In this document: piece by piece, positions 12,936 through 64,000 of the stretch
How positions within the stretch are numbered: position 1 is the first letter of the stretch
How the letters are laid out: the number at the start of each line of letters is the position of its first letter
Origin: Phyllosticta citribraziliensis
Taxonomy: Eukaryota
Direction of reading: 5' to 3'
Length of the DNA stretch: 64,000 nt
NCBI RefSeq assembly: GCF_038025025.1
Contig: NW_027117349.1
Coordinates: forward strand, 992,001 to 1,056,000
Notes under the pieces: model-generated
What the model was told of the DNA's origin: nothing
Databases searched by the model: none
Seen by the model: the letters and a program-made list of their open reading frames with translations, nothing else
Program-made: the position numbers and the translations under genes

Positions 12936-13811
12936 GCGGTGGATCGACGGGGCCGGGTGGTCGCGTAGGATGAGCAGCTGTTGAATTGTGGGGAGGTTCG
13001 GGTTCCTTTATCTGCGTTTCAAAATTCACGACGTTCTGGTCACGGAGTCAAAAGTGAGTGATATCTGTGAGGCCGAAAATCAATGGCTTTCAATTCAAGG
13101 ATCGGCCATGGTGAATGAAGATTTGAAGAAACAGATGCACTACGATACCTTCACGGTGATGAGTGTCCCGACCTGACGTGAAGTGAGGCGATGGACGTTT
13201 TCATTTTCTTCAATCACTGCCAGAATTGACTGCAGGTGTTCCACATGACGGATCTACAACTTGCTCCTCCGTCAGAGGGCCTTTCGACTACAGCTCTTGC
13301 TTCTCAAACTCCAGTACTCGCTTGCTCAATATGACCGCCACAGACGACGCCCTTTGTTCAACACATCAATCCTCAAACAGAACTCGCAGCTCCACTGTCC
13401 TTCCGCTGCACGTCATAACACACTCTATTAGACTGCCCGCCAGCCCATCCCGAGAAGATGACATGAAGAACGGCCGTCGCTCGCAGCATCTGGCAAAGAT
13501 GACCATCGCATAAATGGACAACACGTGGAGCCTAGCTAAAGAATTCCAATCGCAGACATTTCTGCATCAATCATGACAAACTCGACCTGTTTTAGCAGCA
13601 ACAAGTGATGAGCTACTTGTCTGGAGGCTTGCTGCACTTCAAACTTTGCTTGGTGATCACGGATTGGTTGGCCCTCGAAGCGCCTCCTTGGTACCAGACC
13701 TCCTCTTTCCGTGACTTTTCACCCTGATGTGGCTCAGATGTTGACGAATACATGACTGCGACCCACGGAATGACCATGGGTGTCGTAGGAAATCACCGTC
13801 CCTTGTGTACG

Positions 13812-13905
13812 GAACTGCGGTGGCGGATGACTGCTCCCGCGCGCGGTTGTGGTGGTGGATCTGATCCCACGCGCAACAGGTGGCAGACGACTGCTCCTTC
13901 GCCGC
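13812..13905. repeat. Degenerate ~30-bp tandem repeat (3 units) with GACTGCTCC core
   Basis: ggtggcggatGACTGCTCC (core at 13829), ggtggtggATCTGATCC (13859) and ggtggcagacGACTGCTCC (13889). Confidence 0.7.
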
Positions 13906-15529
13906 GTAAAAAGTGATGAAAGGATGACCTCCGCTTGTAGCTGCAGTGCCAGGAGGTCCCGTTTCTTGAAACACCAATTGAGGCAACGCAATCAATGCCA
14001 AAATCGGCGCTACAGCGCGTGGACTTTGCCAGCAGTAGCCAAATTTTATCAACCACACAGAAACGCGAAGAACGCCATCATCAATCACGCCAGGGACAAG
14101 AAGAGAGCAGAAGCAACTGCGAAGGGCCCTGCTACTCATATTCCTGGATCAGTCTGGCGGATGAGCTACCTACTCATCGTCGCTCCACCAACATTGTCGA
14201 CTCGACGTGCTCAGGTCATCCCCAGCACAACACCACCGTCCTCTACCGTCGGCGTCGTCTTCGTCTGTACTTTGCTCTGATCCAGCTGGGGTGAACACTG
14301 TCGTCGACTGGACTGACTTGACGGATTCACCACCAAAAAGACGTCGCCCAGGAATTGCCTAGGCACTACCGCACCAATCAATATTCGGCCACGGAGTACA
14401 CCAAGTCCTGATAGAGCAAAAAAGATACTTTGCAGCTTCCTCATTCTCAGTCTTCAGCAATGGGGCTTCTCATTTAGCTCCGCGACGCATTTAAAGATCC
14501 AAACCAGACCGTCTGGTACAAATGTCCCCAAGTGAGATCACGACAAAGCTAATGGCTTCCGGGCTTTTCAGCGCACATACACCCATCCGTGATATAGGTG
14601 GCGGAAGAACTTGGTCTGCAGCGCCGTCCAATTTGATCAGTCGGTGAGTAGTCGTATGCTTCGACGGGGGATTGGTAGGGAGGATCCGAGCACTCGAGCC
14701 TCATTCAACAGAACTGTCCACGATTTTTACTGCCAAGCCTCGAACCCGAATCAGACCGCCTGGGTGGTCAATGGAGAGGGCCATCATTCACCAGCGAACG
14801 CTGCATTTGCGCCAGTGCCCTGCAGTCTTATGCCAGACCCACTATCTCAGCGCATCCTTCAAACCAAGTCCACTCACTCCACAGCGGCAAGAGCTGAGAT
14901 AAAGGCGTCTTCCATGCGACGGGATCTCGTAGTATGGCGACATGACAGGATGAAAGGGGCTTCCAAACTCTTGACTCTTCCCTCTTCCTGTGAGGTTTCT
15001 ATGAGCAGACTCGGTTAACTCTTCCATGCATTAGACGCAGACTGGGTGCTGAGCCCAACGCGAGAAGATATGAAGTGGTAGCAGCGGGTAGCAGGCAATG
15101 GAGCTCTACGACGCAGCACCTAACAACTTCCACACGAAGACAGGACTGGCCAACCCCGACAGACCTACCTTTAGCAAAACCCTCCTGCCGCTCTGCCGCC
15201 GCAGTGCTTGACACAGCCGCTCGCGACAACGCGTATCTTCACGTCGCCATCAACAGCACATGCATACATGCCCAAACAGCATCCTCACTTGACTTACCTG
15301 CCCCACCTCTCTCTCTCTCTCTCTCCTCCTTGCTCACGAGCGCTGCATTCTGCGCCTGCGAAACCAGAACCAGAGTCCGTCTTCTTCGCAGTGTCAGCCC
15401 ACGCACATGCGCACGCGGCGCTGCAAGGGCGGCAGACAGACAAACCGACAAACAACCCGACAAATGTCAGACACAAAGACGAAAGGACAAACGTCAGAGA
15501 AACACACACCTCTCTCTCTCCCTGCATCA

Positions 15530-18954: not shown

Positions 18955-21551
18955 ATCTAGAGTCATCTCTCTCTTAATTTAGCAGTAGCTCTTTTCCTCC
19001 TCTCGAGGTGATTGGCTGCTGCTGCCATGGCTTCTTTTTTACACCCCAACGCGAAATACCCATACCTCAACGAGACGGGAGGAGAGGAGTATCAGGAGGA
19101 CGGAATGATTGGAAACTGGGAAGTGGGAGGAGTGTGCTGTGGTGTGTGTGTGTTCCAGCAAAGGCGCGTGAGGCGCGCGCAAAGGCAAACCCCTTGATAC
19201 AGGCAACATCAATTCTTCTGGATTAGGTTTCCTGCTTCCGGACCACGCATCGTCTGTTTTTGTTTCTCTTCGACTGCCAAACCTTTTTGATGTCATTGTA
19301 CAGAGCATCCGCACCTTTTTGTATAATGTTTTTTTTTTCATCTCCTGTTTTTGACGGCATTTTGGAGAGCGAGCGAGATGATCGGTACATGCATGCTCGA
19401 TACCCCCAAGCAGTTGACGTCTTCGTTGTGAATATTATTGCTGTTTTATTTGATGTTGCTTGCTTGCTTGCTTGCGTTGTGCTTGTCGTTCTGTTGCTGT
19501 CTGTCTCGAGAAGCAAACGCGCGTCTCCACGTCAAACTGTCTCACTCTCAGCGCACGCAATCCGCCTCTCCCCTGACGCCGCTGCGATCGCCGCCAGCCG
19601 GCCAGCCCCCTCCCCGTCTCCCTCACCACTGTATTCGTATTCAAGCTGACACATGCCAACCAGACCAAAAAAAAAAAAACGCCATCCATCCACCATACCG
19701 CCAGCTCCGTTCAACTCAAATTCCAACCCACCGCCCTCTCCTCTCCCAAAAACCCAAGAAACCAACCGAAACGCACTGCAGACGCCTGCCCTCAGTTCAG
19801 TTCAGCTCGGTTCGCTTCGGCGTATTCGGACTTGCCCCTACCTATTGCCCCGACCGAGGGGCGCTTGGGAGGTGGCTATCGCGTCCATCTCAATTTCCTG
19901 CCAGCCCACGCCAAGACCAAGACGAGCGAAGTGATCGACAGGCACCGCACCCACCGCTGCGCGGGGCAGTGGCGCTTGGGTACGTGTTGTGTGGAGACTG
20001 CTGAGGGCTGAGCTGAGGGGAGAGGGGCGTGTTTGGTGTGAACTGTGAACTGAGGTGTCTGGTGGGCTGGGTGTGTGGGAGCTGACGCTTGCTTTGCTCT
20101 TTGCTGGCTTGGTTGAGGGTGGATGCGCGGCAGACGTTGCTACTTGCTGGCCAGCGGGCCACTCACTGGACTCTGTTGCACACTGGCAAATGATCGGGGC
20201 TGGTCTGCCTACCTACATTGAGCCCTGAACATCACACCCAGGTAGGCAAGCTAGCAAGCAAGCAAGTTAGATAGGTATGCAGGTAGGTGATAGGTAGGTA
20301 AGCAGGCTCTGGCACCAACCACCGTGCATGTTTACAGGTAAGTTAACAGGCAGGTACAAATGTAGAGCTAGCCATCAGTTCCATAGGATACAAAAAAGCG
20401 AGAGTTTTTGTCACATATATTTCTTCTTGTGGTGACGTACTGTACAGGAGGATAGGAAGTCACTGCAACATAATTGCATACCGATATGCGTGCATACCTC
20501 TCTCAAAATACCGACATGGTGCAGGGAATCGCACAAAACACGAAGCTGCGCCCTCACCGTCGGCGCCCGCGCGCTAGGCCAAGCCATCTTCGTCATTGGC
20601 AAAGTGTGAACGGACTTCAATGGTACATACTGACTTGGGTGTAAGAGAGGTGTCTTGCTACATACCTAGGTACCTAGCTATTCAGACTACCTATGTACGT
20701 GGATCATGTACGCGTCGTGGTCAGTGGGCGCCCTCGCCCATGATCCTGCTGTCCATATGTATCCATGCCATACATAGCACGAGGTGTCCAGATCCGCTGC
20801 CGTGCCATGGCCATCCCGCCTCCTCCTCGTTCTCCTCCTCGTCCTCGCCCTCCTCCTCCACGGGCGACGGAGTGCGGGCGCCGGCGGCGCAGGCCCCCTC
20901 GCATCGCCAGCCCAGCACCAACCGATGGTGGTGTCCAAGGAATGGTGGTGGAGGACGGCGGGTGGGTGTCGCGAGTAACGAGACCTCCTGATGCTGTGGT
21001 GGCGAGGTGGGCAGCATTCATCGGCCACCACAGTCACACGGGAGGAGCAGCTCGTCTGCAACCACAGGAGACAAAGCTGCACTGCATCGACTCAGCGGGA
21101 GGTAAAGTGGTATCAGTCTACCGTCTACGAGCGAGAACGGTTCGGAGGCAGTGAGTGAGTGGAGCAAGAAATAAGCGTGACATGAGAGGCGCTTGATCGG
21201 TGTGGGAGCATCAGGGGGGCACATATTCTCGACACTTGCTGCGAATGCCAGGTGGCTGTTATGAGGTGCTTAGGGGGGGATTAGGTGACGAGTGATCTTT
21301 GTCTGACTGACCGGCGTGGGTTGCGGTGATTTGGATGACCCGGACATGGAATCCAGGGAAGCAGGACAAGATGTGTTCCGTACGCGGTCAACCTGAACAT
21401 GCACCCAAGACCGGGCGGAGCGGTGAGCATACCAGCTGGCTGTCAATATATACAAGAGACGGCGGCGAGTGACCGTTCGATCAAATCAACACAAAAAACG
21501 CCACCATTCCCAATGTTTTTGCAGGAGCCCCTTAAGCCGTCAGTCGACAAC

Positions 21552-38112: not shown

Positions 38113-38360
38113 GACGAAGGAGCAGTCATTCACCGCATCACCTTAGATGAATCTTGGGAGCAGCCGTTCAACTTTACAGCCACGCCGAGGAAGCGGTCCT
38201 CCAGCACCACCTCGACGTCCAGGGAGCACTCTTCCGGCATTGTAGTGACGCCTTGGGAGCATTCTTCGGCCACCACAGCGGCGCTCAGGAAGTGGTTGTC
38301 GACCACCACCACAGCTACGCATGAGGAGTCTCTACCACCACCACCACCCAAAGAGCATCC
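38113..38360. repeat. Degenerate ~33-bp-period repeat array with GGAGCA(K/Y)TC core
   Basis: Cores at 38119 (ggagcagtc), 38157 (ggagcagcc), 38190 (gaagcggtc), 38223 (ggagcactc), 38256 (ggagcattc), 38289 (gaagtggtt), 38325 (ggagtctct) and 38352 (agagcatcc). Four consecutive spacings are exactly 33. Confidence 0.7.
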
Positions 38361-40248: not shown

Positions 40249-41302
40249 TGGATTGACCCAGGGAGCCGTCAACGAAAGTGTCGTCATGGGTGAATGTAGG
40301 GAGTGGCTGTTCAACATTACGGATCACACCCTGGGAGCTGCCATACCCTTCCACACCTGCGGAGAAGATGGACAGGACTGAAGAATTTGCTGAAGGGAAT
40401 TTGCTTAAGAGGTTCGGGACTGCGGGATAATCAACGAAAAGCGCTGGCTCTCATGGATTTCGAGGGCTCAATCTCGAACAGAGGATGCAGAGCGTAGCAT
40501 AATCAATTGAGCGGGAATGGCGTGCTCTGACGGCAGAGCAGACCAATGGATTGTGAGGCCTGGTAGCAAGATTCATAGTGCAAACAAAATTGAGATTCTA
40601 TAGCTAGGCGACTTGAACTCTCTGCATTGATATCTTGTGTAGAATCTGAATGTTCTTGAATGTCTCCGAGTACTCTTGTCCATAGTAGCTTGGATGCTTG
40701 CTGTTTTTTGTGTATCAGAGCGCACGAATTCTCCGTATCTGAACCTGTCTGACTAAGTGACACAACTGAGCCTCCATATTCTTCCGTATCGAACCTTCTT
40801 TGGAAAAATTGGTCGCAGTCGTGGATTGTTCAATCAACAGAACAGTGGGTTGGTAGTCATGGATTCCCATTCGGGCAAGCGCGACGGGCGTCCGGACCAT
40901 TTGCCAATTGGTCAACGCGCCGGCGGGAGGCGGCACAGCGCACCGACTCGCGCTCAACATCAGCGCCTCGCGCGACGTTGATTCTTCTACACATCGAACT
41001 TCTTTTCCTCTCTGCAGTTTTCTGCTACGGCAATCATCTGCGGGCTGTCTTGTTGATCAACTTGCACGTCACCTTCATTTTTCGGCGTCACTCTCGCCCG
41101 GTATCCGGGCCACAGCACTTCCGCGCTGCTTCTGTCATCGATCCATCATCTTCATTGACCGCGAATAGCTTCGGCCTTTTGATGCCAACAAGTCTGAAAC
41201 GAGGCTTTTCAGTTCTCGGTATCGCAAAGGTTCGAGAATTTGCCAAAGACGGCCCTGAGCTCTTCACCCCACCGCCGAGGAAATAAACAGAAGCTGTCGA
41301 CC

Positions 41303-47630: not shown

Positions 47631-48319
47631 CTGCTCTGCTTGCTGGCGAGGCGATGCTGCTTGGAACGAAGATATGGAGCGATCGCTTGGTTTTTGCCAC
47701 CGGATTCCAAAATTGGGGACTGGGTCACACGAGGATGGTCGGACCATTGACCGAATGCTCCTTGTCACATTCCCTTGCGGAAGTCTCAATCTAAGGTCGC
47801 TTGAAAGCTTCCTGGTAACACACTTCTAACCGTACGAATGCTCCCTACGATTCCTTCCTGTTCAATTTCTCGTTGTTTTTCGCAGCCTTTCCCACTGGGC
47901 CTTGAAATTACGGATGAGTCGATAAGTGAAGTCAGAAAGCTATCAATGTGACGAAATACTGTCACTGACAAAGGAAGAGAAGCTGCTTCACGCAAAACGG
48001 ACTCGAGAGGGGGTGGCATAGGTTGACGAGTTTTATTCGAACGCCTGGTCCTCCAATCAAGAATCGCTTCCAGCCGCGCAAGGTCGCCACAACTCACCCT
48101 GAGACTGCTATTTGTGCTGTCCAGTCGTTGAGAGGCTATTTACATCGGACTTGCGTCTCAAAACGGACAGAATAGCCGCGCGCCAGGCACCCGTCGTAAC
48201 TCCGCGCCGCTCCAACATGCTTATTTATATTCCTGCATCCACTCACAGAACGAGTCTCTGCCTTCACCTTTTTGTTTATTCCCTGCAGACTCATTGCGCG
48301 ACTCATCCATTCCGAGAAA

Positions 48320-60598: not shown

Positions 60599-61729
60599 AT
60601 GGTTCCAACTGACGGCGCCGATCATCGGCAGCCCGAGCCCGGCTCCATCCTCATCATCGGCGTACGTTCCCCACTACTCTGCCAATCCCCCGCATTCTCA
60701 TCGCCGGCGACACACCACCACACCACCCTCTCGCTTCAATGCCCGTGCTGACTCTCGTGGAAACAGTCTCAAGCAAGAAACCCCCTCGCTCCCCAGCTCC
60801 ACCAATTCTTCCTCAACCTCGACCCCCCGCGCCCCGTCACCAGCGTAAACAACTCGCCGCCATCCCTCCTCGCCAACGCCCTGTCCGTCCACGCTCCCGA
60901 CCTCGTCATCTCTTCGATTGGTGCTCCGCATCCAAGTGCTCAGGACGACGCTGCCGCTGACCAGATTGCGCTCATCGACGCGTGTCTCGCGGCAGGCGTA
61001 CCGCGCTTGCTGCTCGTTCCGTTGCGCGCGGCTTCCGAGTCTGAGTTTGAGGATGTGGACGCTGGTGAAACTGATGGACGCGGTTGGGACGGCGTGACGG
61101 CGGGGGAAGCCCAGGCGCGCGTGTTACGGCACCTGCGCTCAGTGGCGAGGGGGAGTGGTGGGGACAAGGGGGAGAAAGAGCCAGGAGAGGGGGCATCGCG
61201 GACGTTGGAGTGGGTGGGCGTGGCGTGCGGGACAATTCTCGACGCCGCGCTCGTGAACGGGCAATTCGGCGTCGACATGAAGTGGGCGAGCGCCGAAGTG
61301 ATAGGTGACGGGGCGCGCGAGTTTGGCGCCAGCAGCACGCTGTGGGTCTGCCGCGCGGTCGCCGCCGTGGTCGAGCACTGGGACCGCATACCGCGGAACC
61401 AGCTCCTCCACGTCGCCGGCTGCGTGACTACGCCCAACGACGTACTGCGGTGTCTGGAGGCCGTCACGGAGCAGTCGTACCTCGTCAGCTTCGTGGCGGT
61501 CGAGGACGCGGCACACGAGGCGCGGAAGCGCATCGAGCGAGGCTTCGTGGACAAGGGCGCGGAGATGTTGGAGCGCTGCAATCTTTTGGCGTTGGGTGCG
61601 GACGAGGCTTTCAAGGATCGGTCCGCGAACGGCTTGCTTGGGTTAGGCCGGGAATCGGTCAGGGATATCGTGGGCGTTGCGGTTCACACTTTTCGACACA
61701 TGGATACCGTTGGCTGCGGCTGCGGGTAG
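60599..61729 (+). CDS. NmrA/isoflavone-reductase-like Rossmann-fold protein; intron at 60662..60766
   Basis: ATG 60599 MVPTDG...GSILIIG, a phase-0 intron GTACGT...CTGAC...CAG, then DLVISSIG, DQIALIDACLAAGVPRLL, LEWVGVACG, and VTTPNDVLRCLEAVT. Ends GCGCG*. Confidence 0.75.
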
Positions 61730-62077
61730 GGCGTCTCTATTTTGGAAATCCCATCTCTTCATTACTTCTCCCTTTGTGCACTACCGCGTGTTCTTCGAGG
61801 CTTTGACTTTGTTTCGCTGACCACAGGCCTACGGGAGGACTTCTGTTCCATCTTCAGCTTCTTCGCCCGGCACTTCCCTCAGATCAGGGGTAGGGCAGTG
61901 GATGTTTGTCGATATGGTCTTGGGTCTGGATCGTGAAGGTGGTGGGCTCAAGGAAAGCGGGATATTTTCTTGAGGGACGTGGCATTGTTTGCGTGCGCCG
62001 TATCGGGCACATGGCTGTGATCTGGCAAGAGCGCCGTCCTATTCACATGGTCAGTTGAGGGTGCGGTAGTTCTAGGT

Positions 62078-62291
62078 CTTGAATGCTCCTCAAGCGCGTA
62101 GTGTTCAGGGCACTGAATGCTTCTTGTTTCCACTTTTTGCGCGCTTGAATGCTCCCTACACCTTCCGGGTTGAGAAGTTGAATGCTCCTTGACTGCGTCA
62201 TGAAGAGGAGCTTGAATGCTCCTTATTTGCGTAATGGCAAGGGTATTGAATGCTCCCTGGCCGTGTTTCTTTCGACGCACGAATGCTCCTC
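62078..62291. repeat. Seven-unit repeat-spacer array: conserved (TT)GAATGCTCC(T/C) core every 32-34 bp with divergent ~20-22-nt spacers
   Basis: GAATGCT starts at 62081, 62115, 62147, 62180, 62214, 62248 and 62281 (spacings 34, 32, 33, 34, 34, 33). Six of the seven are perfect GAATGCTCC. Confidence 0.93.
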
Positions 62292-62834
62292 AGGTGCTGG
62301 CCCAATTCGTGGTGGAGAGGTAGGTGCTTTTGCCCTTTTTACTGTTGGACATCTTTCTCTGACTTGAAGGCCGAACTCTGCCCCGCGGCCAGCAGCGGGC
62401 ACAGTACTTGAGCTCGCCAGCTTGGGAAGTCGCAACGCTTGTGCTGGTTGGCAACAAACACTCTCCGCCGCCCTCTCCCCTTCTTCCATTTCTCTGCATC
62501 CCATCTCCTGACAACTATGGCCCATTGACCGTTTCCCTTAAACCTGGGTCGACCTCTGCAACCGCCGCGTACCGCCGCTCAGCAACCGCCTACGTCAACC
62601 CAAGCTGACCTCACATTCGTGGGTCCAAGGTACGCTTTCATCTGTGTAATTCCATCGCGATTGCAGGTCAACTAACAGCAATGGCGCAGAAGAAGCTGCC
62701 GATACCCAGTCACCGATTCTGCGGAGTTAGATACAGTACTAGGCCAAAAGTATTTACTTAATTAGCCAATAACGCAGAACACAAAATCGCGCACTTACAT
62801 CCCCCCCCTTTACTTTACTACCACTATAGCTCCA

Positions 62835-64000
62835 TATACTCTATTAGTATAAGTCTTTAGTACTTAAGAGTATTATAAGGAGCTTACTCTAGTTTAAAGA
62901 GCTCTTATTATTTTATCCTACTATTCTAGTAAGAAAGTCTTAATAATTACTTCTAAGCTTTCTATACTACTATTAATAGTTAAATATACCTTATAAAACT
63001 CTATACCTAACTATAGTAGTATATCTAAAGTATATACTAGTTAGCTAAGGGCTATATTAGATTAAGATAAATAGGTTATTATCTAGGAAGTATAAAAAAA
63101 TCTAAAAGTAATATATACCTAGCTCTATAATTTATATAGACTAATAATATTATCTAAAACCTATTACTATATTCTTAAGTAGTATAATATTACTAATTAG
63201 AAGGTAGCTAAGTAGCCCTTCCTTATAATTATATATATAGCTATTTAACTTACTTAGGCTAAGGTATAGTATAACTAGACTATAATAGATTAGGCTAAAC
63301 TTATCTAGTCTAATAAGTACTCTATAAAGTATAGTAAGGGTAAATAATATAAATAGATCTTCTATATACTAGACTAGAAGTAGGAGTAGGAAATAATTAA
63401 AATATATAAGAAAGGAAAAAATATATTAGTTATAGTCTAAATAATATTTTCTAGTACTCTTAAAAGGAGTAATCTCTTTATAATAATAAGAGATCTAGAG
63501 GTAAAGAGGAAGAGCTACTCTACTAACTTCTATCTTTAAGTTTTAGATAAAATAATTCCTACTTTATAGGAACCTAGTATAACCTTTATATAGAATAATA
63601 CCCCTATCTATAAGTTAAAGAAGATTATAAAATAGTTTAAAACTATAGCTATACCCCTTATTAATTAGCCCCCCTATTTACTAGTATAGGTAGGACTAGC
63701 TACTTACTAATATACTTACTTAGCTAGCTAAAATACTAGTACTAGAAGAGGTATAAGAGATAGTAACTAGTAGTAAATAAGTAGGCTCTATAGAATAGGA
63801 ATAAAATAACTACTAAACTAACTAAAATAAGCTACTATCTAGCTATTATTTTACTATCTAAGTAGTATAAGACTTAAGTATAAATAAATAAATAACTAAG
63901 TATTTAGTAGATAGTAGTTTAACTAAGTATAAAAGACTTTATTTATATAAGTAGTACCTCTTAATAAGTAGCTATAAAAGGGAGTATATAACTAGCTAAT
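62835..64000. mobile_element. AT-rich, RIP-degenerated repeat (probable transposon relic; family unrecognisable), continues beyond the window
   Basis: Abrupt AT enrichment with TpA everywhere. By eye there is no CpA, TpG or CpG after ~62835, and the track lists no ORFs here. Confidence 0.88.

Follow-up and report, generated by a model that had tools for sequence, protein, structure and literature searches.

Regularly spaced copies of a nine-base-pair core, common to two families of miniature transposons and to long arrays without terminal repeats in Phyllosticta citribraziliensis, as a candidate protein-binding site

The window, meaning the whole stretch of 64,000 nucleotides that was analysed, contains near its right end an array of seven short cores whose neighbours are fungal genes with introns (Table 1). 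The stop codon of the upstream gene lies 352 bp before core 1. This gene has four homologues, every one from Phyllosticta and the best of them 92% identical, and a match below the Pfam cut-off gives a faint hint that the product may be NmrA-like. On the other side of the array a downstream transcript has a spliced intron, with the next exon at about 62690-62725. Because a spliced exon lies between the array and a block of RIP-altered DNA, the array is placed between two tandem genes and not at the end of a RIP element. The last core is 444 bp from the start of the RIP-altered element (about 62733); the distance of about 550 bp given in an earlier sequence-only reading of the window holds for the start of the strongly AT-rich part. 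The insertion starts TA-CAGT, in the manner of Tc1-type ends, and the partner of this end was not found. A second RIP-altered insertion, at about 65690-67150 in window numbering, also interrupts the downstream transcript, which is present as a spliced contig in run X1 despite the two insertions.

Table 1. Features of the array, its neighbourhood and the MITE remnants, in window coordinates
Feature	Position	Strand	Remarks
Upstream gene, 341 aa	60599..61729	+	intron about 60662-60766
Whole array, 7 units, core GAATGCTCC	62077..62291	+	no terminal inverted repeats, single copy
Core 1, exact	62081..62089	+	
Core 2, one mismatch (GAATGCTTC)	62115..62123	+	
Core 3, exact	62147..62155	+	
Core 4, exact	62180..62188	+	
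Core 5, exact	62214..62222	+	
Core 6, exact	62248..62256	+	
Core 7, exact	62281..62289	+	
GT..AG intron of downstream transcript, spliced	62630..62689	+	run X1 contig joint
RIP-altered AT-rich insertion, about 1.95 kb	62733..64000, continues past window end (to about 64690)	.	without array
Old family A MITE remnant, decayed cores	13777..13975	+	
Family B left-end remnant	14635..14743	-	
Family A-like remnant(s), one exact and several degenerate cores	38117..38332	-	
Two exact cores 83 bp apart, degenerate core between	47753..47844	+	weak family B match

The cores follow one another at 34, 32, 33, 34, 34 and 33 bp, and the seven-fold recurrence with differing spacers described in the sequence-only reading is real. 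Six of the seven cores are exact copies of GAATGCTCC and core 2 differs at one position, so that 62 of 63 core positions are intact. The flanks show a weak preference for a pyrimidine on either side of the core, Y(-1) and Y(+1), and no eighth unit was seen beyond either side of the array. Identity is 0.97 among the cores as against 0.46 among the spacers with their flanks trimmed, the shuffled value being 0.44. Tandem Repeats Finder at score 30 did not report the array because the spacers are nearly unrelated. A residual likeness of spacers 1, 4 and 5 had been claimed; with the conserved flanks included and 21 pairs tested, pairs 1-5 and 4-5 were above 500 of 500 shuffles and pair 1-4 gave p=0.016, a likeness that is weak in view of the trimmed mean. 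Two of the six spacings, those of 33 bp, are multiples of three, contrary to what had been stated. The spacings of 34 and 32 bp break any frame all the same, and a coding repeat is rejected, as had been concluded before. An open frame of 113 residues through the array had no match among 1.84 billion representatives.

The core is greatly over-represented in the genome (31.35 Mb). GAATGCTCC occurs 1,743 times in exact form as against 99 times for the reversed control, while Markov models (orders 3-5) trained on 260 kb predict a count of 258-384. A genome scan for spaced clusters against a background, as the sequence-only reading had suggested, found 125 pairs at 30-36 bp where the reversed control had none, together with 71 triples (control 0). 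At 9-29 bp there were 4 pairs (control 1). Lone cores are near background, with 2 in 200 kb of random DNA, and the excess therefore sits in arrays and repeats. The word is enriched genome-wide almost exclusively in arrays and in MITEs, at a preferred spacing of 33-34 bp and with spacings below 30 bp nearly absent.

Two MITE families, designated A and B, were found from the terminal inverted repeats flanking the first core pairs. The 22-bp terminal repeat of family A (CACAGTG) has 258 matches in the genome and that of family B 76, both with none for the control. Of thirty family A loci fetched, four lacked a partner end and one duplicated another. The remaining 25 elements, all distinct, measure 119-248 bp and start CACAGTG, which is also the sequence of the RAG recombination heptamer, and 16 of the 25 are flanked by a 4-bp target duplication, which is GC-rich. 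Thirty loci were likewise sampled for family B. Five had no partner end and five were dropped before alignment (L066, L068, L071, L076 and L078: a duplicate, doubtful pairings and mis-oriented rows, L076 being coreless), leaving 20. The ends are C[A/G]AGG, and a 3-bp target duplication was found in 11 of the 15 rows with both ends placeable, two of these rows being one element. All 25 family A and all 20 retained family B elements contain one to four cores in a single orientation. Further remnants of A or B in the window, weak to clear, are at 20962-21061 and 40555-40744, and the weak family B match of Table 1 extends over 47753-47853. The transposon connection that had been considered for the cores is in this way borne out by two families elsewhere in the genome, and not by the neighbouring RIP block.

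The elements of both families were selected on their ends alone, and the cores within them were therefore sampled without bias. In family A 8.4% of the cells in core columns differ from the consensus, compared with 22.8% in other internal columns, and in family B the values are 11.0% and 25.9%. On these figures the two families, which differ in termini and target duplications, have retained the core through their subfamily history, as they have the terminal repeats. Private substitutions are equally common in the cores and elsewhere (2.3% vs 2.2% in family A; 3.0% vs 4.1%, not significant, in family B), so that ordinary MITE copies show no mark of selection by the host. The core pattern in the MITEs is that of a site needed for multiplication of the lineage and not selected after insertion. 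In older copies the cores erode, with a mixed direction relative to the conserved inner positions: 0.864 vs 0.818 in family A (24 of 31 loci usable), 0.725 vs 0.805 in family B (9 of 20 usable, the alignment being noisy) and, for five incidental old family A copies, 0.74 vs 0.76.

No autonomous or long partner element was found among the terminal-repeat matches examined. The transposase profiles PF02992 and PF20231 were blank in the genome and equally blank in the control genomes, and an open frame through one family A copy had no match among 46 candidates. An apparent 1.5-kb element on contig C7 proved to be two separate short copies. A RIP-type pattern of the terminal repeat gave 56 matches, nearly all of them ordinary MITE ends and one in a coreless AT-rich block. 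The MITE and array loci are themselves without RIP alteration.

The array in the window belongs to a further class, that of arrays without terminal repeats. Sixteen such arrays, comprising 119 units, were analysed; ten have 6-14 units each, and in none of the 16 did a flanking inverted repeat exceed the best of 30 shuffles. Within an array the cores are 0.84-1.00 alike and the spacers 0.46-0.88, the best degenerate core having been taken wherever there was a gap, and because intact cores were used to find the arrays and units were called at no more than one mismatch, core identity is inflated. The sets of spacers are specific to each array, whereas all 16 conserve one and the same 9-mer, and over the 119 units the information is limited to nine positions with weak flanks. 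The period is most often 33-34 bp, and some loci have 37-38 or 49 bp instead. In most of the other arrays the spacers are visible tandem duplicates (for example 0.83 vs 0.54, 0.73 vs 0.56 and 0.65 vs 0.52). As these likenesses show, long arrays that lack terminal repeats are built by tandem duplication at the locus itself. One of them, at L007:190-510, is the interior of a family A element expanded to about nine units with both terminal repeats lost; it matches the family A profile with its cores masked and is a direct example of a MITE becoming a long array.

The arrays lie just past stop codons, before genes, between convergent genes and in an intron, and in both orientations, according to crude gene calls. 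This is as expected of a site that acts at the level of DNA. One of the genes preceded by a long array presumably encodes a Brr2-like helicase. At L171:4267-4634 (C8, about 2,054 kb) an array of 11 units occupies a whole intron, which interrupts a histidine-phosphatase domain.

Intact cores, random spacers and the lack of ends are together best explained by selection in place on a putative protein-binding site. We favour, with moderate confidence, the reading that the array is a homotypic cluster of a candidate site in double-stranded DNA (YGAATGCTCCY), recognised by a sequence-specific protein and retained at this place by selection. The protein would cover roughly 30 bp and bind the cores side by side, tandem duplication having copied the site at a distance that leaves room for this. 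MITE lineages may keep the sites since binding helps movement or escape from silencing. The locus in the window probably goes back to a unit of an element of this kind that was expanded long ago, or else the site was captured here independently. Its spacers have drifted to random while the cores stayed intact. Once the cores are masked the array has no similarity to A or B, and its transposon origin is therefore one that we infer. Selection may have kept it as a chromatin or promoter-side element between the two tandem genes, where it could open chromatin, insulate or act as a roadblock.

The candidate binder may be encoded by the host or, like TnpA or VANC, be an accessory protein of a transposon, and the occurrence of one core in two dissimilar families slightly favours a host factor. 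Searches of the genome did not find a binding protein for the core, and known sites of fungal factors, such as those of TEA/AbaA and HSF, do not appear to fit it. Besides the failure to find a binder, the favoured reading of a protein-bound cluster has against it the lack of host selection in ordinary MITE copies, the mixed result for older copies and the discovery of the arrays by way of their intact cores. Lone cores also stay near background, unlike those of a general transcription-factor site, and the period is variable and not a multiple of 10.5 bp. The sequence-only reading had proposed selection on the core, to which the identity of 0.97 against spacers at shuffle level lends support, and a phased array at about three helical turns; of the latter the putative binding array stands as the best reading, and the three turns describe the period only loosely, its mode being 33-34 bp with values of 37-38 and 49 bp as well.

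The main rival, in our estimate a real if rather unlikely possibility, is that the array is a fairly young and now functionless insertion of a third non-autonomous family, its ends being of an unrecognised type or deleted and its cores having been selected only while the element lineage was mobile. The constraint in families A and B is at the level of the transposon and not of the host, as this would require, and L007 is a long array without terminal repeats that is clearly an expanded family A interior. Spacer 6, behind core 6, has 11 nt in common with the family A terminal repeat, a word that occurs in none of 920 random tiles; noticed post hoc, it is only a hint of a link to family A. A young copy should, however, retain its ends, and no flanking inverted repeat above shuffles was found at the array. 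Helitron-type ends were not seen in an inspection by eye, and the best match to the 22-nt family A terminal repeat has nine mismatches, which is equalled by 200 of the 920 random tiles. A young copy should also have sisters, whereas a first-look search of the genome, of limited sensitivity, returned the self match alone, and none of the six spacers had relatives among 253 other spacers (control spacers 4 of 5). The family A and family B profiles did not match the core-masked array. At least eight other long arrays would moreover each require a lost family of their own.

We hold as similarly tentative the reading that a so far undescribed, sequence-specific chromatin factor of the host acts only on regularly spaced GAATGCTCC arrays, the site having been captured by two independent transposon lineages. 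The arrays would then have an insulator, nucleosome-positioning, roadblock or origin-like role. With the captured site the transposons would have been able to spread in gene-rich DNA, while long single-locus arrays, including those in the intron and in gaps between housekeeping genes, would be kept by the host.

It is improbable that the array is a neutrally decayed minisatellite or MITE interior whose conserved-looking cores reflect a bias of noticing. Intact cores were indeed the basis on which the arrays were ascertained, and hundreds of MITE remnants with eroding cores could supply the raw material. Divergence along the unit is, however, not uniform as in a neutral minisatellite, with the spacers at shuffle level and the cores nearly identical, and the same 9-mer is conserved in all 16 arrays with differing spacers. 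In a retention model, the probability of no more than one mismatch in 63 core sites is 4e-4 at a retention of 0.85, the level of older family A copies, and 5e-9 at a per-site retention of 0.7. The contrast between cores and spacers already largely refutes neutral decay. Neither of the outcomes that the sequence-only reading had named as damaging here, a neutral minisatellite and a lack of other arrays, was found, given this contrast and the 16 arrays of the further class.

It is quite improbable that the cores act at the RNA level, either as sites of binding or cleavage from which spacer RNAs of about 24 nt are set free or as regulators of a read-through transcript. One contig of run X1 spans the array with zero differences and its spliced intron looks like RNA, a second X1 contig holds a two-core array from another locus, and stable hairpins are possible in two units of the window array. 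The X1 contigs, however, give no strand, level or ends, and DNA may be in the run. No RNA run was listed for the locus. Four of 23 sequencing runs were examined, and three of the four covered the upstream gene alone and stopped at or before position 61756; this missing coverage says nothing either way. Rfam gave no match for the window array, and its folding is not unusual (z -1.84 and -1.09). A conserved unit hairpin is rejected, with hairpins stabler than shuffles in 7 of the 16 arrays (p=0.5). The arrays lie both sense and antisense to the adjoining genes and one of them is intronic, and the release of spacer RNAs proposed in the sequence-only reading is on these counts not supported.

Very improbable is a CRISPR-like or integron-like system that adds foreign spacers and duplicates the 9-bp core with each insertion. 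CRISPR direct repeats are about 23-50 bp long. The window array has the repeat-spacer look, the near-constant spacer length and the unrelated spacers of such a system, but its repeat is 9 bp, outside that range, and not palindromic, and the host is a fungus. The spacers of most sister arrays come from tandem duplication, and the search of the genome with the spacers, which had been recommended, gave the self match only and neither a source nor a protospacer. With the information confined to nine positions, the earlier conclusion that this is no true CRISPR holds.

Nor did scans of viral and metagenome contigs yield anything of the fungal type. Viral contigs gave 14 stretches with the pattern, mostly coding Asn-Ala-Pro repeats, and metagenomes, searched at 34-bp spacing only and silent on fungi not included there, gave 18; the matches from both sources are mostly coding repeats or perfect tandem repeats. 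The 11-residue Asn-Ala-Pro repeats of the viral contigs L099 and L100 mimic the 33-bp period and are a class of false positives for wider scans. On metagenome contig L194 the core recurs every 17 bp in an intergenic array of bacterial appearance, which is probably unrelated.

The least credible proposal, that the array belongs to the neighbouring RIP-altered transposon as its boundary element or a subterminal repeat, has the short distance to the RIP block in its favour and fails on the spliced host exon between them, on the absence of RIP-type core pairs from the whole genome, where RIP-altered autonomous copies with arrays were sought, and on the eight other long arrays, none with an AT-rich block within about 4 kb and all with a GC content of at least 43% in every 500-bp bin.

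By analogy, the array in the window would work most like the factor sites amplified by plant MITEs, the VANC motifs and the CACTA subterminal repeats, and by the tests applied it is a member of none of these. The primary paper on MITE-amplified E2F sites is reportedly Henaff et al. 2014. As described in parts of a paper on E2F sites in Brassica MITEs (PMC5950925), MITEs have amplified transcription-factor sites in plants, several families spreading one short word and with it much of the genome's stock. That is also the case here, but the host is a fungus, there is no known factor and lone sites are near background, and the Phyllosticta cores further differ in their strict minimum spacing and in the long single-copy arrays outside recognisable MITEs. 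The VANC targets of Arabidopsis VANDAL transposons are, in the passages concerned of PMC5735166, a 9-base motif that accumulated through formation of tandem repeats in non-coding DNA, and one VANC motif is also present in an unrelated element. Multiplication of a short motif by tandem duplication in transposon non-coding DNA is found here as well, whereas no VANC-like gene or autonomous element was found, the carriers being MITEs of 120-250 bp.

The subterminal repeats of CACTA/En-Spm elements, bound by TnpA (PMC2613891, in part), are like the cores a short reiterated motif that the element lineage keeps as a cis-determinant. CACTA elements have direct and inverted sets at both ends, whereas the cores lie mid-element in one orientation (45 of 45 elements) and are common to families with different ends, and the window array has no ends. 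Under the CMCT rule, as given in portions of PMC12730594, termini are CA..TG with target duplications of 2-5 bp, and the partner transposase carries C(2)C and H(3-4)H motifs. Family A fits the rule with its CAC..GTG ends and its 4-bp duplication, and family B fits partly, with CA/CG..TG/CG ends and a 3-bp duplication. Within the sections concerned, a survey of fungal DNA transposons has Transib absent from fungi and CMC present (PMC5751038), and Neurospora Sly1-1 indicates that CMC elements occur in ascomycetes (PMC4592977). The array in the window has no terminal repeats and no internal homology to family A beyond the cores, and the C[A/G]AGG ends, 3-bp duplication and internal homology of family B are all lacking.

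The core and its spacing rule make up a concrete and testable DNA word for a filamentous fungus. To our knowledge few such cis-elements have been defined in filamentous fungi. No literature title was found on a motif of the core word or its reverse complement, subscription journals and supplements lying outside the scope of the search. Families A and B were not found described, judged by title, in the literature on Phyllosticta repeats, fungal MITEs or subterminal repeats; Repbase or supplements may hold them. A term search in the main text of a Phyllosticta genome paper (PMC9073689) gave nothing for transposons or motifs. One site in two MITE families with different ends points to a candidate factor that miniature transposons may need for spreading where RIP is active, and the long single-copy arrays may be sites of transposon origin that the host has retained. 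If the chromatin-factor reading were true, such arrays would amount to a chromatin element of a filamentous fungus that is defined by its sequence and dependent on spacing. Should no protein bind the cores and should related species be without the arrays, two MITE families and an odd remnant remain, which would be of modest interest.

A few individual arrays differ from the general pattern. The 11-core array at L168:4212-4647 (C8, about 337 kb) has two 71-bp units that hold an inverted core mid-unit, and it is the only clear case of mixed orientation inside one array. The arrays at L125:3960-4066 (C1, about 910.8 kb) and L215:1796-1956 (C16, about 289 kb) look young, with exact cores, periods of 49 bp and 38 bp, respectively, and spacers that are 79-83% alike; the latter begins just behind a stop codon. 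Two related short arrays, L001 and L002, lie 2.6 kb apart on C1 (about 499 and 501.6 kb), fit A and B poorly and are possibly a third family.
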